A stretch of DNA of 64,000 bases, from the sequence record NC_019505.1. One strand, 5' to 3'. The notes under the pieces were generated by a model that was not told the DNA's origin, did not search any database, and was given only the letters and a program-made list of their open reading frames with translations. A program made the position numbers and the translations under genes. Shown here in pieces: positions 14,193-62,257 of the stretch (positions are counted from its first letter, which is position 1; each line of letters begins with the position of its first letter). The DNA comes from Escherichia phage wV7.

Positions 14193-14217
14193 GGGCTTCG
14201 GCCCTTTGGAGAAAAAG

Positions 14218-51491: not shown

Positions 51492-54400
51492 ATGGCCGAG
51501 ATTAAAAGAAAGTTCAGAGCAGAAGACGGTCTGGACGCAGGTGGTGATAAAATAATCAACGTAGCTTTAGCTGATCGTACCGTAGGAACTGACGGTGTAA
51601 ACGTTGATTACTTAATTCAAGAAAACACAGTTCAACAATATGATCCAACTCGTGGATATTTAAAAGATTTTGTAATCATTTATGATAACCGCTTTTGGGC
51701 TGCTATAAATGATATTCCAAAACCAGCAGGAGCTTTTAATAGCGTACGATGGAGAGCGTTACGCACTGATGCAAACTGGACAACTGTTTCGTCAGGACCC
51801 TATCAATTAAAATCAGGCGAATCGATTTCAGTTAACACCGCAGCGGGTAATGACATTACATTTACTTTGCCATCTTCTCCAATTGATGGTGATACTATCG
51901 TTCTCCAAGATATTGGAGGAAAACCTGGAGTTAACCAGGTTTTAATTACAGCTCCGGTACAAAGCATTGTAAACTTTAGAGGTCAACAAGTACGCTCAGT
52001 ACTAATGACTCATCCAAAATCACAGATAGTTTTAATTTTTAGTAATCGTCTGTGGCAAATGTATGTTGCTGATTATAGCAGAGAAGCGGCAGTTGTAACA
52101 CCGGCAAGTCTTTATCAAGCGCAATCAAACGATTTTATCGTGCGTAGATTTACTTCTGCTTCAGCAATTAATATTAAACTTCCTAGATTTGCTAATCATG
52201 GGGATATTATTAATTTTGTTGATTTAGATAAATTAAATCCGTTATATCATACTATCGTTACTACATACGATGAAACTACTTCTGTACAAGAAGTTGGAAC
52301 TCATTCCATTGAAGGTCGTACATCTATTGATGGTTTCTTGATGTTTGATGATAATGAGAAATTGTGGAGATTGTTTGACGGGGATAGTAAAGCACGTTTA
52401 CGCATTATAACGACTAATTCTAATATTCGTCCAAATGAAGAAGTCATGGTATTTGGCGCGAATAATGGAACAACCCAAACAATTGAACTTCAGCTTCCAA
52501 CTGATATTTCTATCGGTGATACTGTTAAGATTTCCATGAATTATATGAGAAAAGGACAAACAGTTAAAATCAAAGCTGCCGGTGAAGATAAAATTGCTTC
52601 TTCAGTTCAATTGCTGCAATTTCCAAAACGTTCAGAATACCCACCTGAAACTAAATGGGTGACTGTTCAAGAATTAGTTTTTAATGGCGAAACCAATTAT
52701 GTTCCAGTTTTACAGCTTGCTTATATCGAAGATTCTGACGGAAAATATTGGGTTGTACAGCAAAACGTTCCAACTGTAGAAAGAGTAGACTCTTTAAATA
52801 ATTCTACTAGAGCAAGATTAGGGGTAATTGCTTTAGCTACACAAGCTCAAGCTAATGCTGATTTAGAAAATTCTCCACAAAAAGAATTGGCAATTACTCC
52901 AGAAACGTTAGCTAATCGTACTGCTACAGAAACTCGTAGAGGTATTGCAAGAATAGCAACTACTGCTCAAGTTAACCAGGATACTACATTCTCTTTTGCT
53001 GATGATATTATCATCACTCCTAAAAAGCTGAATGAAAGAACAGCTACTGAAACTCGTAGGGGTGTCGCTGAAATTGCTACGCAACAGGAAACTAATACAG
53101 GTACTGATGATACGACAATCATCACTCCTAAAAAGCTTCAAGCTCGCCAAGGTTCTGAATCATTATCTGGTATTGTAACTTTTGTATCTACTGCAGGTGC
53201 TACTCCAGCTTCTAGCCGTGAATTAAATGGTACGAATGTTTATAATAAAAACACTAATAATTTAGTTGTTTCACCTAAAGCTTTGGATCAGTATAAAGCT
53301 ACTCCAACACAGCAAGGTGCAGTAATTTTAGCAGTTGAAAGTGAAGTAATTGCTGGTCAAAGTCAAGAAGGATGGGCAAATGCTGTTGTAACTCCAGAAA
53401 CGTTACACAAAAAGACATCAACTGATGGAAGAATTGGATTAATTGAAATTGCTACGCAAAGTGAAGTTAATACAGGAACTGATTATACTCGTGCAGTCAC
53501 TCCTAAAACTTTAAATGACCGTAGAGCAACTGAAAGTTTAAGTGGTATAGCTGAAATTGCTACACAAGTTGAATTCGACGCGGGCGTCGACGATACTCGT
53601 ATCTCTACACCATTAAAAATTAAAACCAGATTTAATAGTACTGATCGTACTTCTGTTGTTGCTCTATCTGGATTAGTTGAATCAGGAACTCTCTGGGACC
53701 ATTATACCCTTAATATTCTTGAAGCAAACGAGACACAACGTGGTACACTTCGTGTAGCTACACAAGTCGAAGCTGCTGCAGGAACATTAGATAATGTTTT
53801 AATAACTCCTAAAAAGCTTTTAGGTACTAAATCTACTGAAGCGCAAGAAGGTGTTATTAAAGTTGCAACACAAACCGAAACTGTTGCTGGTACATCATCT
53901 AATACTGCTGTATCTCCAAAGAATTTAAAATGGATCGTGCAGAGTGAACCTACTTGGGCAGCTACTACTACAGTAAGAGGCTTTGTTAAAACTTCATCTG
54001 GTTCAATTACATTCGTTGGTAATGATACAGCCGGTTCTACTCAGGACTTAGAGCTATACGAGAAAAATAGCTATGCAGTATCACCATACGAATTAAACCG
54101 TGTATTAGCAAATTATTTGCCATTAAAAGCAAAAGCTGCAGATAGTAATTTATTGGATGGTCTAGATTCATCTCAGTTCATTCGTAGGGATATTGCACAG
54201 ACGGTTAATGGTTCACTAACCTTAACCCAACAAACGAATCTGAGTGCCCCTCTTGTATCATCTAGTACTGCTACGTTTGGTGGATCAGTTTCGGCAAATA
54301 GTACATTAACTATTTCTAATACTGGAACGGCAACTCGTCTGATTTTTGAGAAAGGACCTCAAACTGGAACAAACCCAGCCCAAACGATGACTGTTAGAGT

Positions 54401-55361
54401 GTGGGGAAATCAATTTAGTGGGGAATTAGATACAACACGTTCTACCGTATTTGAAGTTAGTGATGAAACATCTAGTCATTTTTATTCTCAGCGCAATAAA
54501 GCTGGAAATATAACATTTAATATCAACGGTACAGTAACACCTATAAATGTTAATGCTTCAGGAACATTGAATGCAAATGGTGTAGCAACATTTGGTAATT
54601 CAGTCACTGCAACTGGTGAAATTATTTCTCGAAGCGCAAATGCTTTCCGTGCTATTAACGGAAATTACGGTTTCATTGTTCGCAATGATGGATCAGTAAC
54701 GAATTTTATGCTTACTGCATCGGGTGATCAGACTGGTGGATTTAATGGATTACGCCCATTAGCTATTAATAATGCATCTGGCCAAGTAACGATTGGTGAA
54801 AGCTTAATCATTGCCAAAGGTGCTACTATAAATTCAGGTGGTTTGACTGTTAACTCGAGAATTCGTTCTCAAGGTACTAAAACATCTGACTTATATACAC
54901 GTGCGCCAACATCTGATACTGTAGGATTCTGGTCAATTGATATTAACGATTCAGCTACTTATAACCAGTTCCCAGGTTATTTTAAAATGGTTGAAAAAAC
55001 TAATGAAGTGACTGGTCTTCCATATTTAGAACGTGGCGAAGAAGTTAAATCTCCTGGTACACTGACTCAGTTTGGTAACACACTTGATTCGCTTTACCAA
55101 GATTGGATTACTTATCCAACGACACCAGAAGCGCGTACCACTCGCTGGACACGTACATGGCAGAAAACCAAAAACTCTTGGTCAAGTTTTGTTCAGGTAT
55201 TTGATGGAGGTAACCCTCCTCAGCCATCTGATATTGGTGCTTTACCATCTGATAATGCTATAATGGGGAATCTTACTATTCGTGATTTCTTACGAATTGG
55301 TAATGTTCGCATTATTCCTGACCCAGTGAATAAAACTGTTAAATTTGAATGGGTTGAATAA
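51492..55361 (+). CDS. 34: Long tail fibre proximal subunit gp34 (1289 aa)
   Basis: Length 1289 aa as T4 gp34; internal fibre repeats. Confidence 0.95.
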   Translation: MAEIKRKFRAEDGLDAGGDKIINVALADRTVGTDGVNVDYLIQENTVQQYDPTRGYLKDFVIIYDNRFWAAINDIPKPAGAFNSVRWRALRTDANWTTVSSGPYQLKSGESISVNTAAGNDITFTLPSSPIDGDTIVLQDIGGKPGVNQVLITAPVQSIVNFRGQQVRSVLMTHPKSQIVLIFSNRLWQMYVADYSREAAVVTPASLYQAQSNDFIVRRFTSASAINIKLPRFANHGDIINFVDLDKLNPLYHTIVTTYDETTSVQEVGTHSIEGRTSIDGFLMFDDNEKLWRLFDGDSKARLRIITTNSNIRPNEEVMVFGANNGTTQTIELQLPTDISIGDTVKISMNYMRKGQTVKIKAAGEDKIASSVQLLQFPKRSEYPPETKWVTVQELVFNGETNYVPVLQLAYIEDSDGKYWVVQQNVPTVERVDSLNNSTRARLGVIALATQAQANADLENSPQKELAITPETLANRTATETRRGIARIATTAQVNQDTTFSFADDIIITPKKLNERTATETRRGVAEIATQQETNTGTDDTTIITPKKLQARQGSESLSGIVTFVSTAGATPASSRELNGTNVYNKNTNNLVVSPKALDQYKATPTQQGAVILAVESEVIAGQSQEGWANAVVTPETLHKKTSTDGRIGLIEIATQSEVNTGTDYTRAVTPKTLNDRRATESLSGIAEIATQVEFDAGVDDTRISTPLKIKTRFNSTDRTSVVALSGLVESGTLWDHYTLNILEANETQRGTLRVATQVEAAAGTLDNVLITPKKLLGTKSTEAQEGVIKVATQTETVAGTSSNTAVSPKNLKWIVQSEPTWAATTTVRGFVKTSSGSITFVGNDTAGSTQDLELYEKNSYAVSPYELNRVLANYLPLKAKAADSNLLDGLDSSQFIRRDIAQTVNGSLTLTQQTNLSAPLVSSSTATFGGSVSANSTLTISNTGTATRLIFEKGPQTGTNPAQTMTVRVWGNQFSGELDTTRSTVFEVSDETSSHFYSQRNKAGNITFNINGTVTPINVNASGTLNANGVATFGNSVTATGEIISRSANAFRAINGNYGFIVRNDGSVTNFMLTASGDQTGGFNGLRPLAINNASGQVTIGESLIIAKGATINSGGLTVNSRIRSQGTKTSDLYTRAPTSDTVGFWSIDINDSATYNQFPGYFKMVEKTNEVTGLPYLERGEEVKSPGTLTQFGNTLDSLYQDWITYPTTPEARTTRWTRTWQKTKNSWSSFVQVFDGGNPPQPSDIGALPSDNAIMGNLTIRDFLRIGNVRIIPDPVNKTVKFEWVE
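52810..53940 (+). repeat. Array of degenerate ~35-40-aa fibre repeats within gene 34
   Basis: Repeated motif T-E-T-R-R-G-(V/I)-A-x-I-A-T ... (I/V)-T-P-K-K-L at least 6 times; nucleotide repeats of ATCACTCCTAAAAAGCT. Confidence 0.7.
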
Positions 55362-55369
55362 GAGGTATT

Positions 55370-56485
55370 ATGGAAAAATTTATGGCAAAGTTTGGACAAG
55401 GATATGTCCAAACGCCATTTTTATCGGAAAGTAATTCAGTAAGATATAAAATAAGTATAGCGGGTTCTTGCCCGCTTTCTACAGCAGGACCATATGTCAA
55501 ATTTCAGGATAATCCTATCGGAAGTCAAACATTTAACGCAGGTCTTCATTTAAGAGTTTTTGACCCTTCTACAGGAGCATTGGTTGATAGTAAGTCATAT
55601 GTTTTTTCTACTTCAAATGATACAACATCTGCTGCTTTTGTTAGTTTCATGAACTCTTTGACGAATAATAGACTTGTTGCTATATTAACTAGCGGAAAGG
55701 TTAATTTTCCTCCTGAGGTAGTATCTTGGCTAAGAGTTGCGGGAACGTCTGCTTTTCCATCTGATTCTATATTGTCAAGATTTGACGTATCATATGCTGC
55801 CTTTTATACTTCTTCTAAAAGAGCTATTGCATTAGAACATGTTAAACTGAGTAATAGAAAAAGCACAGATGATTATCAAACTATTTTAGATGTTGTATTT
55901 GACAGTTTAGAAGACGTTGGAGCTACCGGGTTTCCAAGAAGAACATATGAAAGCGTTGAGCAGTTTATGTCAGCGGTTGGTGGAACTAATAACGAAATTG
56001 CACGTCTACCAACTTCATCCGCGATAAGTAAACTTTCTGACTACAATTTAATTCCTGGCGATGTTCTTTATCTTAAAGCACAACTATATGCTGATGCCGA
56101 TTTACTTGCTCTTGGAACTACAAATATATCCATCCGTTTTTATGATGAATCGGATGGATATATTTCTTCAACACATGCTGAGTTTACTGGACAAGCTGAG
56201 TCATGGGAATTAAAGGAAGACTATGTAGTTGTTCCTGAAAATGCAGTAGGATTTACGATATATGCACAAAGAACTGCACAAGCAGGTCAAGGTGGCATGA
56301 GGAATTTAAGTTTTTCTGAAGTATCAAGAAATGGCGGAATTTCAAAACCTGCAGAATTTGGCGTCAATGGTATTCGAGTTAATTATGTCTGTGAATCTGC
56401 TTCACCTCCAGATATAATGGTATTTCCTACACAAGCATCGTCTAAAACTGGTAAAGTGTTTGGACAAGAATTTAGAGAAGTTTAA
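55370..56485 (+). CDS. 35: Long tail fibre hinge protein gp35 (371 aa)
   Basis: AGAGG SD then ATG; length as T4 gp35. Confidence 0.85.
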   Translation: MEKFMAKFGQGYVQTPFLSESNSVRYKISIAGSCPLSTAGPYVKFQDNPIGSQTFNAGLHLRVFDPSTGALVDSKSYVFSTSNDTTSAAFVSFMNSLTNNRLVAILTSGKVNFPPEVVSWLRVAGTSAFPSDSILSRFDVSYAAFYTSSKRAIALEHVKLSNRKSTDDYQTILDVVFDSLEDVGATGFPRRTYESVEQFMSAVGGTNNEIARLPTSSAISKLSDYNLIPGDVLYLKAQLYADADLLALGTTNISIRFYDESDGYISSTHAEFTGQAESWELKEDYVVVPENAVGFTIYAQRTAQAGQGGMRNLSFSEVSRNGGISKPAEFGVNGIRVNYVCESASPPDIMVFPTQASSKTGKVFGQEFREV

Positions 56486-56547: not shown

Positions 56548-57204
56548 ATGGCTGATTTAAAAGTAGGTTCAACAACCGGAGGCTCTGTCATTTGGCATCA
56601 AGGAAATTTTCCATTGAATCCAGCCGGTGACGATGTACTCTATAAATCATTTAAAATATATTCAGAATATAATAAACCACAAGCTGCTGATAACGATTTC
56701 GTTTCTAAAGCTAATGGCGGTACTTATTTAAATAAAGTAATTTTTAATAAAGGAATGACTGTTCCTGGCGCAGGGTCAGGTGATAATGGTATTTTTGCTG
56801 GTCCTGGTGATAGTGCCACGTATGATACTACAAATATGGATATTGTTTCGTGGTATGGTATTGGTTTTAAATCATCACAAGGAACAGCAGGTAGAACTGT
56901 AGTAATTAACACACGAAATGGAGATATTAGCTCAAAGGGCGTAATTGAAGCATCACAAATCCGTGTAACTTCGTTATCACCAGTAAATAATTATGACCTT
57001 ACGCGGAAAGATTATGTTGATGGAGCAATAAATATTGTTACAGCAAACGCAAACTCTAGGGTATTACGCTCTGGAGACACTATGACAGGAAATTTAACTG
57101 CGCCAAACCTTTTTTCACAGAATCCTGCATCTCAACCCTCGCATGTTCCACGATTTGACCAAATTGTTATTAAGGATTCTGTTCAAGATTTCGGCTATTA
57201 TTAA
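56548..57204 (+). CDS. 36: Long tail fibre distal connector gp36 (218 aa)
   Basis: Length and position as T4 gp36. Confidence 0.85.
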   Translation: MADLKVGSTTGGSVIWHQGNFPLNPAGDDVLYKSFKIYSEYNKPQAADNDFVSKANGGTYLNKVIFNKGMTVPGAGSGDNGIFAGPGDSATYDTTNMDIVSWYGIGFKSSQGTAGRTVVINTRNGDISSKGVIEASQIRVTSLSPVNNYDLTRKDYVDGAINIVTANANSRVLRSGDTMTGNLTAPNLFSQNPASQPSHVPRFDQIVIKDSVQDFGYY

Positions 57205-57212
57205 GAGGACTT

Positions 57213-60200
57213 ATGGCTACTTTAAAACAAATACAATTTAAAAGAAGCAAAACTGCAGGAGCACGTCCTGCCGCTTCAGTATTAGCCGAAGGTGAATTGG
57301 CTATAAACTTAAAAGACCGTGTACTTTTTACTAAAGATGACCAAGGAAATATTATTGATCTGGGTTTTGCTAAAGGCGGTAGTATTGACGGGAATGTTAT
57401 TCATACAGGCAATTATAACCAAACTGGCGATTATACTTTAAATGGCACATTCACTCAGACAGGTAATTTTAATTTAACTGGTATTGCTCGAGTAACTCGT
57501 GATATTATTGCCGCCGGGCAGATTATGACTGAAGGCGGAGAACTTATTACAAAAAGTTCAGGTACAGCGCATGTTCGTTTTTTCGATGGCAATAGTCGCG
57601 AACGTGGAATCATTTATGCCCCGGCTAATGATGGTTTAACTACACAAGTACTTAATATCAGGGTTCAAGACTACGCCGCTGGTAGCGAAAGCACTTATGC
57701 ATTTTCAGGCAGTGGCCTATTTACTTCACCTGAAGTATCAGCATGGAAATCTATTTCGTCTCCACAAATTCTGACCGATAAAGTTATTACAAATGGGAAG
57801 AAGACAGGCGATTATGACATCTATTCATTAGCAAATAACACCCCATTATCTGAAAGCACTACTGCTATTAATCATCTTCGTGTCATGCGTAATGCCGTTG
57901 GTTCTGGTATTTTCCATGAAGTTAAAGATAATGATGGGATAACCTGGTATGCCGGTGACGGGTTGGAGGCTTATCTTTGGTCGTTTACGTGGTCCGGTGG
58001 GTTGAAAGCGGGTCATTCTATTTCTATAGGTACCCCAGGCGGTCCAAAAGGATATTCTGAATTAGGAACTGCTTCGATTGCTCTTGGTGATAATGACACC
58101 GGGTTAAAATGGCACCATGATGGATATTATTTCAGCGTCAATAATGGAACGAAAACATTTTTATTTAGTCCTAGCGAAACAACTAGCCTAAGAAAATTTG
58201 TAGCTGGATATTCTACTAACGGAACCGATTTAACTACTCCTCCGACTGAAAACTATGCTCTTGCTACTGTCGTGACATATCACGATAATAACGCGTTTGG
58301 AGATGGTCAAACTCTTTTAGGATATTATCAAGGCGGTAACTATCATCACTATTTCCGCGGTAAGGGTACCACAAACATTAATACTCATGGCGGTTTGTTA
58401 GTTACTCCAGGTAATATTGACGTTATTGGTGGTTCTGTTAATATCGATGGTAGAAATAATTCTTCTACACTGATGTTTAGAGGTAACACAACTGGTAGTA
58501 GTTCAGTTGATAATATGACAATTTCCGTTTGGGGCAATACGTTTACTAATCCTAGTGAAGGTACCCGTAAAAATGTTATGGAAATTTCTGATGCAACTAG
58601 CTGGATGAGCTATATTCAACGAACAACTGCAGGTAAAGTTGAATCGGTTATAAATGGCACCCAGATTGTTAATGAAAACTTGACCGTAGTAAAAAATGCT
58701 ACATTTGATGGTACAATCAGCGCAGCAGGTGAAATTTCATCTGGTGCAGTGAATGCGCTTCGCATTTGGAACGCAGATTATGGAGCCATTTTTAGACGTT
58801 CAGAAGGTAGTCTTCATATTATTCCAACTGCTTATGGTGAAGGCAAAAATGGTGATATCGGTCCACTTCGCCCGTTTAGTATGGCTTTAGATACTGGTAA
58901 AGTTACTATTCCAGATTTACAATCAAGTTACAATACGTTTGCTGCTAACGGTTATATTAAATTTGTTGGTCATGGAGCGGGTGCAGGTGGTTATGATATT
59001 CAGTATTCACAAGCTGCTCCTATTTTCCAAGAAATCGATGATGCTGCTGTAAGCAAATATTATCCTATTGTTAAACAGAAGTTTTTAAATGGTAAAGCTG
59101 TCTGGTCTTTGGGTACTGAAATTAATTCAGGTACATTTGTTTTACATCATTTGAAAGAAGATGGTTCACAAGGCCATACATCAAGATTTAATGCTGATGG
59201 TACAGTTAATTTCCCCGATAATGTTCAAGTCGGCGGCGGTGAAGCTACTATTGCTAGAAACGGTAATATCTTCTCTGATATTTGGAAAACATTTACTTCT
59301 GCCGGAGATACTACAAATATTCACGATGCGATAGCTACTCGTGTTGCCAAAGAAGGCGATACGATGACTGGCAAATTAATCGTTAGAAGAGGCTCTGACG
59401 CTATTAACATTGCTGCCGATGAAAATGATTCTTGCTATTTACTTGGAACATCGGGTGGAGCGAATTCATGGTACATCGGTAAAGGAGGAGCAGATGACAC
59501 TGCTTCATTTTATAATTTCAAAACTACCGCAGGAATTACTCTTAATAGTGTTGGTGATATTGATTTTAACGTCAAAAATCAAGCTACTGCAGCTTCATTA
59601 AATTTTTATCGTTTATATTTAAATGGAAGACAATGGACAGCTACACAAGGTCACGGCTATAATAATCAATGGCAAACAGAAGCCCCATTCTTCGTTGACT
59701 TTGGTGAATCTGTTCCGAAAGATAGTTATATGCCTATAATTAAAGGAAGAAGCCAAATCATTAACGAAGGATATGCCACAAAGGCAGATTTTGGTATTAT
59801 TCGATTGGGTGGAAATGCTACTTGGGGAAATGCAGTAATTCGTGTTGGTTCTGCGGAAAGCGGAGATAGCAGTCATCCTAATGCAATATTTGTGTTTCAG
59901 GCTAATGGTGATTTTAAAGCTCCGGTTGGCCTTCGTGCTGGTGTTAACTTGGGCGTCGGCACAATTCCAGTATGGGGCGGAGCATCTATCGCCATCGGGG
60001 ATGATGATACCGGTTTAGTTCATGGCGGCGATGGTCGAATTAATATGTATGCTAACTCGCAGCATATAGCATCATGGGGCACGATGTATCAATCTCATCC
60101 AGGCCTTTGGGATTCAAATGGAGCTTTTTGGACAGAAGTTGGCAAAGCAATTATTTCTCATGGCCATTTAGTTCAGGCGAATGACAGCTATTCAACGTAT

Positions 60201-60557
60201 GTCCGCGATGTTTATGTCCGCTCTGATATTCGTGTTAAAAAGGACCTAGTTAAATTTGAAAATGCTTCTGAGAAGCTTTCAAAAATTAATGGTTACACTT
60301 ATATGCAGAAGCGAGGCCTAGATGAAGAAGGTAATCAGAAATGGGAACCAAACGCTGGGTTAATTGCTCAAGAAGTTCAAGCTATTTTACCTGAATTGGT
60401 TGAAGGCGATCAGGATAGTGAAGCTTTACTTCGTTTGAACTATAACGGTGTAATTGGTTTAAATACAGCTGCAATCAATGAGCATACTGCAGAAATTGCA
60501 GAACTTAAGTCAGAGATTGAAGAGCTTAAAAAATTAGTTAAATCATTGTTAAAATAA
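57213..60557 (+). CDS. 37: Long tail fibre distal subunit gp37 (1114 aa) with C-terminal intramolecular-chaperone domain
   Basis: Conserved N-terminal region [22 protein letters not shown]...; C-terminal ~110 aa has an S-D-I-R-V-K-K motif and coiled-coil tail typical of self-cleaving S74-type chaperone domains. Confidence 0.9.
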
Positions 60558-60562
60558 AATGA

Positions 60563-60576
60563 GGGGCTTCGGCCCC
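60563..60576 (+). other. C(UUCG)G hairpin between genes 37 and 38
   Basis: GGGGC-TTCG-GCCCC immediately upstream of the gp38 GGAGG SD. Confidence 0.5.
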
Positions 60577-60588
60577 TTGGAGGTTTAT

Positions 60589-61383
60589 ATGGCAGTTGAA
60601 GGACCGTGGGTAGGATGGTCTGCGAGGGTACAAACTGGAGACCCTTGGATGGGTGGTGCCGCGCTGAGATTGAGAATGGGAATTCCGTTTTGGATGAGTA
60701 ATATGATAGGTCGATCTGTTGAAGTAATTCACACCCTTGGAGCGGACCATAACTTCAATGGTCAATGGTTCCGAGATAGATGTTTTGAGGCAGGTAGTGC
60801 ACCTATAGTGTTTAATATTACCGGAAATTTGGTATCATATTCTAGAGACGTTCCTTTATTCTTCATGTACGGAGATACACCTAATGAATATGTTCAGTTG
60901 AATATTGGTGGCGGCGTCCATATGTGGGGTAGAGGTGGACAAGGTGGATGGACTCATTCCGGCGGAGATGGTAATGGTCAACAAGGTGGTCATTGTATTC
61001 AAAATGACATCGGTGGACGATTAAGAATTAATAACGGTGGAGTAATTTGTGGTGGAGGTGGAGGTGGAGGTGGTATCGCTTATCGTCCTCACTCTGGTGC
61101 AAAATGGCAAGATATTGGTGGTGGTGGAGGAAGACCATTTGGCCCAGGAGGAGGCGGAGGTTATTCCGGCGGCGCAGCTTCTTATGATGGCCCAGGAGGT
61201 GGTTATAATTATGGTAATGCTCACTCTGGCCAGGGTGGTGATGCTGGCGCAAATGGACAAAATGCCTGGCATGATGGCGGTAAAGTTCTAAAAGTTGGAG
61301 CTGGTGGCGCTGCCGGATATGCTGTTATAGGATCAGCTCCAACATGGCAAAATGTTGGAGTAATATATGGTCCAAGGGTATAA
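60589..61383 (+). CDS. 38: gp38 receptor-recognising adhesin, T2-type with glycine-rich motifs (264 aa)
   Basis: ATG at 60589 is preceded by GGAGG; the ORF-track ATG at 60559 overlaps the hairpin and lacks SD. Runs of GGGGGGGG and GPGGGGG separate variable segments. Confidence 0.85.
61051..61270 (+). repeat. Glycine-codon microsatellite-like repeats (GGTGGA)n inside gene 38
   Basis: ggtggaggtggaggtggaggtggt at 61051-61074 and further GGN runs; produces spurious overlapping ORFs in other frames. Confidence 0.7.
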
Positions 61384-61414: not shown

Positions 61415-62077
61415 ATGGCAGCACCTAGAATATCATTTTCGCCCTCTGATATTCTATTTGGTGTTCTAGATCGCTTGTTCAAAGATAACGCTACCGGGAA
61501 AGTTCTTGCTTCCCGGGTAGCTGTCGTAATTCTTTTATTTATGATGGCGATTGTTTGGTATAGGGGAGATAGTTTCTTTGAGTACTATAAGCAATCAAAG
61601 TATGAAACATACAGTGAAATTATTGAAAAGGAAAGAAACGCACGCTTTGAATCTGTCGCCCTGGAACAACTCCAGATAGTTCACATATCATCTGAGGCAG
61701 ACTTTAGTGCGGTGTATTCTTTCCGCCCTAAAAACTTAAACTATTTTGTTGATATTATAGCATATGAAGGAAAATTACCTTCAACAATAAGTGAAAAATC
61801 ACTTGGAGGATATCCTGTTGATAAAACTATGGATGAATATACAGTTCATTTAAATGGACGTCATTATTATTCCAACTCAAAATTTGCTTTTTTACCAACT
61901 AAAAAGCCTACTCCCGAAATAAACTACATGTACAGTTGTCCATATTTTAATTTGGATAACATCTATGCTGGAACAATAACCATGTACTGGTATAGAAATG
62001 ATCATATAAGTAATGACCGCCTTGAATCAATATGTTCTCAATTCGTCGATGAGGGTTTTCTTATCTTCTTGGGTTAA
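61415..62077 (+). CDS. t: Holin T (220 aa)
   Basis: GGAGG SD; single N-terminal TM segment (VAVVILLFMMAIVWY) then large periplasmic domain; matches T4 T organisation. Confidence 0.85.
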   Translation: MAAPRISFSPSDILFGVLDRLFKDNATGKVLASRVAVVILLFMMAIVWYRGDSFFEYYKQSKYETYSEIIEKERNARFESVALEQLQIVHISSEADFSAVYSFRPKNLNYFVDIIAYEGKLPSTISEKSLGGYPVDKTMDEYTVHLNGRHYYSNSKFAFLPTKKPTPEINYMYSCPYFNLDNIYAGTITMYWYRNDHISNDRLESICSQFVDEGFLIFLG

Positions 62078-62257
62078 TTCAGAAACAATTTTACGGAATG
62101 AATTCTGATTTAATTTTCTACCTTCATGCGTTACTCCAATCTCATTCAGAAATGCAATAAAATTAGCACGATTCTCAACAATATCTTCTCTGGAAAATTT
62201 AATCAAAATAGACGCAACAGTAATAATTTCACGAACTGTATCAATATTTTTATTCAT
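62027..62257 (-). CDS. asiA: AsiA anti-sigma70 factor, 76 aa with divergent/short C-terminus
   Basis: First ~72 residues match recalled T4 AsiA (MNKNIDTVREIITVASILIKFSREDIVENRANF...); ends as ...LIDELRTY and overlaps the 3' end of t by 51 nt. Confidence 0.8.
   Translation of the reverse strand: MNKNIDTVREIITVASILIKFSREDIVENRANFIAFLNEIGVTHEGRKLNQNSFRKIVSELTQEDKKTLIDELRTY

Follow-up and report, generated by a model that had tools for sequence, protein, structure and literature searches.

The question raised by the end of gene 37 in Escherichia phage wV7 (NC_019505.1) is which protein, gp37 or gp38, forms the receptor-binding tip of the long tail fibre. In phage T4, gp37 itself bears the receptor-binding tip, and the T4 gp38 is an unrelated protein which is not present in the virion. 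In T2, T6 and many other T-even phages, the C-terminus of gp37 is cleaved and gp38 then forms the cap, according to reviews (PMC3157838), which for the C-terminal removal of T2 gp37 cite Drexler, Riede and Henning 1986 (J Mol Biol 191:267). An autocleaving chaperone that unmasks the docking site of gp38 was described for phage S16 by Dunne et al. 2018, as summarised in PMC7917993. The idea of a self-cleaving chaperone in gp37 is already known, having been published for T2/T6 and S16, and the family, its fold and its Ser-Lys mechanism have likewise been established. For the present phage, a first-pass annotation made from the sequence had claimed that the last ~110 residues of gp37, from SDIRVKKD through a coiled-coil tail, resemble the auto-proteolytic chaperone domains of other phage fibres, that Ser1004 is the candidate cleavage residue, and that maturation follows T2, with a gp38 cap, and not the T4 arrangement; a lack of similarity to Peptidase_S74 profiles was named as one finding that would speak against it. 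In this study, we analysed the window, that is, the whole stretch of 64,000 nucleotides, and report that the C-terminus of gp37 is very probably an S74 chaperone which, by homology with studied relatives, would be cleaved off, so that gp38 would cap the tip.

Gene 37 and the tail-fibre locus

The long-tail-fibre genes were found in the order gp34-gp35-gp36-gp37-gp38-holin t, as follows.

51492..55361, plus strand: gp34, 1289 aa, intact in the window
55370..56485: gp35, the fibre hinge protein
56548..57204: gp36, between gp35 and gp37 in the canonical order
57213..60557, plus strand: gene 37, open reading frame of the long tail fibre distal subunit precursor, 1114 aa, 119.6 kDa

The translated gp37 begins with the conserved T-even gp37 start, and its reading frame is closed by a TAA stop codon at 60555-60557. 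Pfam recognised Gp34_trimer, gp37_trimer and Peptidase_S74 domains in gp37, and no match to Collar or Phage_fiber was obtained for this protein. No NCBIfam model matches gp37 or gp38. In the GenBank annotation of the nearly identical E. coli O157 typing phage 7 (KP869105.1), gp37 is merely labelled 'hypothetical protein'.

A Peptidase_S74 domain at the C-terminus of gp37

The domain in question and its Pfam core occupy the following positions.

60222..60554, plus strand: C-terminal intramolecular chaperone domain, residues 1004-1114, 111 aa, 12.4 kDa
60222-60401, plus strand: Pfam Peptidase_S74 core, residues 1004-1063, within the chaperone domain

When searched as an isolated segment, these residues matched PF13884 Peptidase_S74 ('Chaperone of endosialidase') with 54.1 bits (E 2e-14), the gathering score being 22; the full-length gp37 scored 48.3 bits. 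The match covers profile positions 1-57 of 58, with Ser1004 at position 1. When the last 211 residues were compared with the whole set of PDB sequences using phmmer, S16 gp37 (6F45) was matched at E 4e-45 and the ICA domain of MyRF (7DC3) at E 0.037. A profile of the domain, built from five sequences, retrieved 6F45 at 3.5e-50 and 7DC3 at 9e-10 from the PDB sequences, as well as the 8JOV tail fibre (4e-4) and the GA-1 neck-appendage chaperone 3GUD (0.027). Neither endoNF (3GW6) nor T5 (4UW8) was retrieved with this profile at E <= 0.1, and the links to these two proteins therefore rest on Pfam and on fold comparison.

The segment singled out by the first-pass annotation was exact in its coordinates and sequence and measures 111 aa. 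Its likeness to auto-proteolytic chaperones is, by the Pfam and phmmer scores, far beyond chance, and the S74 profile similarity on which the proposal had been staked was found well above the gathering score. The domain occupies the extreme C-terminus of gp37, as expected for the family. Its 111 residues matched 27 PHROG families, mostly of tail-fibre, tail-spike or baseplate proteins, and 24 of the 25 listed have a match that stops no more than ~12 positions short of the C-terminus of the profile, a pattern which, at the level of sequence, is the signature of a mobile C-terminal module. A second S74 domain elsewhere in the window was considered and rejected, as the SD.R.K motif occurs a single time across all six frames of the 64 kb.

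Catalytic dyad and predicted cleavage site

Three features define the predicted active site.

60222..60224, plus strand: Ser1004 (codon TCT), predicted nucleophile of the Ser-Lys dyad
60237..60239, plus strand: Lys1009, predicted general base, at Ser +5
60219..60224, plus strand: predicted scissile bond Arg1003-Ser1004, in the context DVYVR^SDIRVKK

Ser1004 is followed by D-I-R-V-K-K-D. When this protein was aligned with its counterparts from RB69, an S16-like Gelderlandvirus, T2 and a T5-like phage (alignments A2 and A3), S1004, D1005, R1007 and K1009 proved invariant. Among 29 database homologues (alignment A4), the S, D and K of the motif are nearly invariant, and the rows without these residues (P0027 and P0031) have nothing aligned at the motif. 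The Lys stands five residues after the Ser, as it does in endoNF (S911/K916) and MyRF (S587/K592); in both of these proteins the two residues are indispensable, the Lys acts as the general base, and the chain is cut immediately N-terminal of the Ser (PMC3828593, PMC8326128). The context of the site in the window aligns with DLNVS^SDRRIKK of S16 gp37, the last 113 residues of which are released by autocleavage according to PMC7917993, and with DVYIR^SDGRLKI, the gp37 site of the fPS phages (PMC7917993). The crystallised chain of the GA-1 chaperone (3GUD) begins at the aligned Ser (SDERHK). By homology with the S16, fPS and endoNF sites, R1003-S1004 is the predicted scissile bond, and Ser1004 the predicted nucleophile and first residue of the released fragment. 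The candidate cleavage residue first put forward is indeed Ser at codon 1004, and its role is refined to that of predicted nucleophile by its invariance, its place at the first profile position and its equivalence to S911 of endoNF and S587 of MyRF. A cut at this bond would split the precursor of 119.6 kDa into a mature gp37 of 107.2 kDa and a fragment of 12.4 kDa.

The site also bears on two other accounts of the domain. A genuine S74 chaperone might stay uncleaved in this lineage and be retained as the structural tip, with gp38 attached elsewhere or acting transiently. Some functional plasticity does exist within the family, since the domain of MyRF stays on the membrane after cleavage, unlike in the phage cases. 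However, none of the four motif residues of SDxRxK, that is, the catalytic Ser and Lys together with the conserved Asp and Arg, is altered or varies, and the sequence DVYVR^SD around the site agrees with the fPS phages and closely resembles S16, so that an uncleaved domain appears improbable. Alternatively, the C-terminus could be removed by a host protease or another phage protease, the S74 likeness then reflecting the chaperone function only. Reviews on the original T2 work leave room for this, as they present the processing as established and, in the passages concerned, leave the mechanism unstated. Yet the Ser-Lys dyad was needed for cleavage in every studied member of the family (endoNF, MrfA and MyRF), the cleavage of S16 gp37 is described as auto-cleavage (PMC7917993), and the dyad is conserved in the gp37 of the window; we consider an external protease very unlikely. 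Self-cleavage at Arg1003-Ser1004 is the preferred reading in what follows.

Predicted fold and C-terminal helix

Residues 964-1114 were modelled as a monomer using AlphaFold2 with the 29-sequence alignment of database homologues. Block-mean pLDDT was ~79-98 over the chaperone part, and below 50 for the 40 residues of the fibre tip preceding it. In the model, a short helix comes first, then a long beta-hairpin and another short helix, and the chain continues through two short strands into a terminal helix of 37 residues. This agrees with the fold of the family, in which a long C-terminal helix comes after short helices and a beta-hairpin 'tentacle'. Foldseek comparison of the monomer model with the PDB returned the MyRF ICA (7DC3) with probability 1.0 and E 4e-6, and the endoNF 'Intramolecular Chaperone' (3GW6) with probability 0.97. 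The terminal helix was delimited using DSSP.

60441..60551, plus strand: long C-terminal helix, residues 1077-1113 (model residues 114-150), predicted trimerising coiled coil

In the best register, the heptad a/d positions of this helix read Y-I-N-I-H-I-L-I-L-V-L, with L, I, V or M at 8 of 11, a count that was reached in 123 of 20,000 shuffles. The homologous alpha4 helix of MyRF and endoNF is a trimeric coiled coil which drives trimerisation (PMC8326128), and the heptad pattern of the gp37 helix agrees with it. The coiled-coil tail claimed from the letters alone thus appears in the model as one continuous predicted helix with a heptad pattern. The identification of residues 1004-1114 as a Peptidase_S74 intramolecular chaperone is supported by sequence, by the predicted fold and by the conserved Ser-Lys dyad.

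gp38 and the type of tail-fibre tip

The gene downstream of gene 37 and the parts of both proteins that are predicted to meet are listed below.

57213..60221, plus strand: predicted mature gp37, residues 1-1003, 107.2 kDa, from the S74 start and the S16 and fPS cleavage sites
59973..60221, plus strand: distal tip of mature gp37, ~residues 921-1003, homologous to the gp38-docking fragment of S16 gp37
60589..61383, plus strand: gene 38, T2-type glycine-rich tail-fibre adhesin, 264 aa, with GGAGG at 60579-60583
60589-60708, plus strand: N-terminal gp37-attachment domain of gp38, residues 1-40 (Pfam Gp38_N)

gp38 matched Pfam GP38 'phage tail fibre adhesin' at 1.1e-68 and Gp38_N at 2.5e-19, and PHROG 2056 'tail fiber protein; host specificity' at 3e-109. 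By BLASTP it is 68% identical to RB69 gp38 and 40% identical to T2 gp38, and T4 gp38 showed no significant BLASTP similarity to it. As described for S16 gp38, the protein has poly-glycine motifs and tryptophans near the N-terminus, the latter at positions 7, 10, 20 and 35. In S16, the N-terminal Trp residues of gp38 dock on the gp37 surface bared by release of the chaperone (PMC7917993), and the gp37 tip carries this docking surface (PMC7917993 and PMC9608196). The gp37 tip at ~921-1003 aligns with residues 23-92 of 6F45 chain A, within the phmmer match to S16 gp37. The presence of Gp38_N speaks further against an uncleaved chaperone, as in S16 this domain docks on the surface that chaperone release exposes. 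A longer gp38 reading frame from the ATG at 60559 (10 more codons) was rejected, as this codon lies just upstream of the 37/38 hairpin and lacks a Shine-Dalgarno sequence. In the longer mechanical frame, Gp38_N begins to match at residue 11, which is the Met at 60589, and the gp38 CDS in GenBank starts at the same ATG.

BLASTP aligned T4 gp37 to residues 1-646 only of the window gp37, a homologous N-terminal part with 35% identity, and the gene order in T4 is that of the window. According to Pfam, T4 gp37 has Collar and Phage_fiber domains and no S74 domain, and the gp37 proteins of T2, RB69 and the S16-like phage each carry S74 at the C-terminus. On this domain content, the T2-type rather than the T4-type arrangement is well supported, and the T2-type maturation with a gp38 cap that had been proposed is upheld, on sequence grounds, by the T2-type gp38 and by the lack of S74 in T4 gp37. 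The opposite case, in which the likeness would be due to chance or to a generic coiled coil, gp37 would be the receptor-binding tip and gp38 an assembly chaperone as in T4, is refuted by Pfam, the searches of PDB sequences, BLASTP, the domain content of T4 gp37 and the fold comparison, and we assign it a negligible probability. 'T2-type' refers here to the mode of maturation; judged by its sequence, the lineage of this gp37 is RB69-type.

Proposed maturation of gp37

Cleavage, the exact bond and the order of events we infer from homology only; identity of the chaperone domain to T-even cases with reported processing is 56% for S16 and 35-38% for T2. On this basis, the heptad helices at the C-terminus (1077-1113) would bring three nascent gp37 chains into register as a trimeric coiled coil, and the beta-hairpin part of the chaperone would act as the template on which the trimeric fibre tip upstream of it folds. 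After this folding step, Lys1009 would deprotonate Ser1004 in each chain, and Ser1004 would attack the Arg1003-Ser1004 peptide bond and free the 12.4-kDa fragment. Release of the fragment would bare the distal surface of mature gp37 (1-1003, 107.2 kDa), on which the N-terminal domain of gp38 would dock, and the receptor-binding loops would then be borne by gp38 and not by gp37.

Comparison with related and remoter systems

The closest named relative is RB69 (NC_004928.1). RB69 is a Mosigvirus, the window genome a Tequatrovirus. RB69 gp37, with S74 at residues 993-1052, shares 82% identity with the window gp37 over the full length and 97% in the chaperone domain, and for gp38 the two phages agree in all of the first 25 residues shown. 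No report on the processing of RB69 gp37 was found in the literature examined.

S16 shares the gene order 37 then 38, the C-terminal S74 domain (56% identity over 111 aa) with the SDxRxKKD motif, and a homologous gp37 tip and gp38 N-terminal attachment domain. It differs in the residue before the cut, which is Ser in S16 and Arg in the window gp37, and the window gp37 tip has an insertion of 11 residues relative to S16. The protein is also longer, with 1114 aa as compared to 749 aa in the S16-like phage examined.

With T2, the phage shares the maturation logic, in which a C-terminal piece of gp37 is removed and a gp38 adhesin sits on the tip. The S74 domain of T2 gp37 lies at 1243-1300 of 1341 aa; the T2 chaperone domain has 99 aa, lacks most of the long heptad tail and is 35-38% identical, and over the full length the two gp37 proteins are 29-34% identical by BLASTP. 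That the domain might be T2-like in sequence was rejected, as it is RB69-like by BLASTP.

The endoNF chaperone of phage K1F (3GW6; Schwarzer 2007, Schulz 2010) is the founder of Peptidase_S74 and is ~13-15% identical to the gp37 domain. It is carried by a tailspike enzyme instead of a fibre, has a longer 'tentacle' hairpin and R897 as an upstream activating residue, and leaves a tip which stays uncapped after release. No separate adhesin is involved in the L-shaped tail fibre pb1 of T5 (4UW8), of which the exposed tip itself binds the receptor, and none is added in the case of Bacillus phage GA-1 gp12 (3GUD), a related chaperone. The ICA of MYRF/MrfA (7DC3) is part of a transcription factor tethered to a membrane; there it is the N-terminal part that is set free, and the domain itself remains on the ER membrane.

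Distribution and lineages of the chaperone domain

A tblastn search with the 111 aa found matches in 1221 phage records, with at least 90% identity in 177 of them, including RB69, RB68 and vB_EcoM_112; T2 was matched with 38% identity over 68 aa. Judged by sequence, the T-evens carry at least two diverged lineages of gp37 chaperone, namely an RB69/S16 lineage of 111-113 aa with the long heptad tail and a T2 lineage of 99 aa, and the domain of the window is a near-identical copy of a widespread variant. The N-terminus of gp38 tracks the C-terminus of gp37, being identical to that of RB69 and divergent from that of T2.

The junction between the two genes contains a further conserved element.

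60562..60577, plus strand: intercistronic hairpin AGGGGC-UUCG-GCCCCU, after the stop codon of gene 37 and before the Shine-Dalgarno sequence of gene 38

RNA folding gave an 8-bp stem with a UUCG tetraloop, -18.5 kcal/mol and z = -2.7. A C(UUCG)G hairpin is also present at the 37/38 junction of RB69, T2 and T4, in the last of which the coding DNA around it is unrelated to that of the window, and the junction of the S16-like phage has GAGCC-UACG-GGCUC instead. The hairpin lacks a T-run after it and so differs from typical intrinsic terminators; it may serve to stabilise the mRNA, to provide a conserved patch for module exchange, or both. A further GGGC-TTCG-GCCC was noted at window position 14193.

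It is possible, and we put it forward tentatively, that each chaperone type travels as one cassette with the gp37 tip and the gp38 N-terminal domain, bounded by the C(UUCG)G hairpin downstream of gene 37. If so, the type of cassette would set which gp38 adhesins a fibre accepts. T2 gp37 is reported to be incompatible with PP01 gp38 (PMC12892980), indicating that variants are not freely interchangeable. A cassette of this kind would extend the known mosaicism of tail fibres and calls for no new mechanism.

Consequences for annotation and fibre engineering

The analysis settles the annotation of a gp37 listed as 'hypothetical protein', and it points to gp38, not gp37, as the receptor-binding determinant in an O157-typing phage. 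Mature gp37 in the virion is expected to be ~107 kDa and to end at Arg1003. For folding, fibre engineering or recombinant expression would have to keep the C-terminal 111 residues including Ser1004 and Lys1009, and tags or fusions placed after residue 1003 would be lost. Beyond these points of annotation and engineering, nothing new for phage biology follows.

Comparison with E. coli O157 typing phage 7

The gp37-gp38 region showed 100.0% megablast identity to typing phage 7 (KP869105.1, Tequatrovirus). A base-by-base comparison found two substitutions in this region, both outside the chaperone domain; that differences from KP869105.1 might touch this domain was examined and rejected, as none does. 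In the ~57 kb compared, there are three substitutions, all nonsynonymous and all in long-tail-fibre genes.

51763: gp34 codon 91 substitution versus KP869105.1
59926: gp37 codon 905, V versus A in KP869105.1
61104: gp38 codon 172, K versus N in KP869105.1, in the 'SGAKWQD' loop between poly-glycine motifs

The matching stretch of KP869105.1 annotates thyA (td), nrdA and nrdB. No tRNA genes and no Rfam families at gathering threshold were found in the whole window (1-64000), and hence no group I intron of the T4 td/nrdB kind was detected.

At the convergent junction of t (holin) and asiA, 87 bp are missing relative to KP869105.1 (window 62039-62041), altering both reading frames.

61415..62077, plus strand: holin t open reading frame, 220 aa versus 218, with the last ~9 codons lost and a new tail ...SQFVDEGFLIFLG
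62027..62257, minus strand: AsiA open reading frame, 76 aa, down from 90, ending ...LIDELRTY

After the loss, the two frames overlap antisense by 51 bp. In all, 571 phage records match the junction, and each one listed contains the extra 87 bp within its match; among complete E. coli genomes there was no match. The deletion may represent a true variant of the lysis-timing or rapid-lysis type, or an artefact of assembly or editing.

KP869105.1 is described as a 'partial genome' and is broken inside gene 34, with the N-terminal fragment at the end of the record and the rest at its start, and 316 bp of it (record positions 166599-166914) are absent from the window. The intact gp34 indicates that the window comes from another, or a better, assembly of an almost identical phage. 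The pattern of the three substitutions looks like host-range adaptation of a typing phage 7 derivative, as far as the sequences suggest.

Residues 58-112 of gp35 matched Pfam ILEI (PF15711, 'Interleukin-like EMT inducer') with 32.3 bits against a threshold of 27 (E 1.4e-7), which we take to be the known 'GG domain' common to phage gp35 and the FAM3/ILEI proteins.
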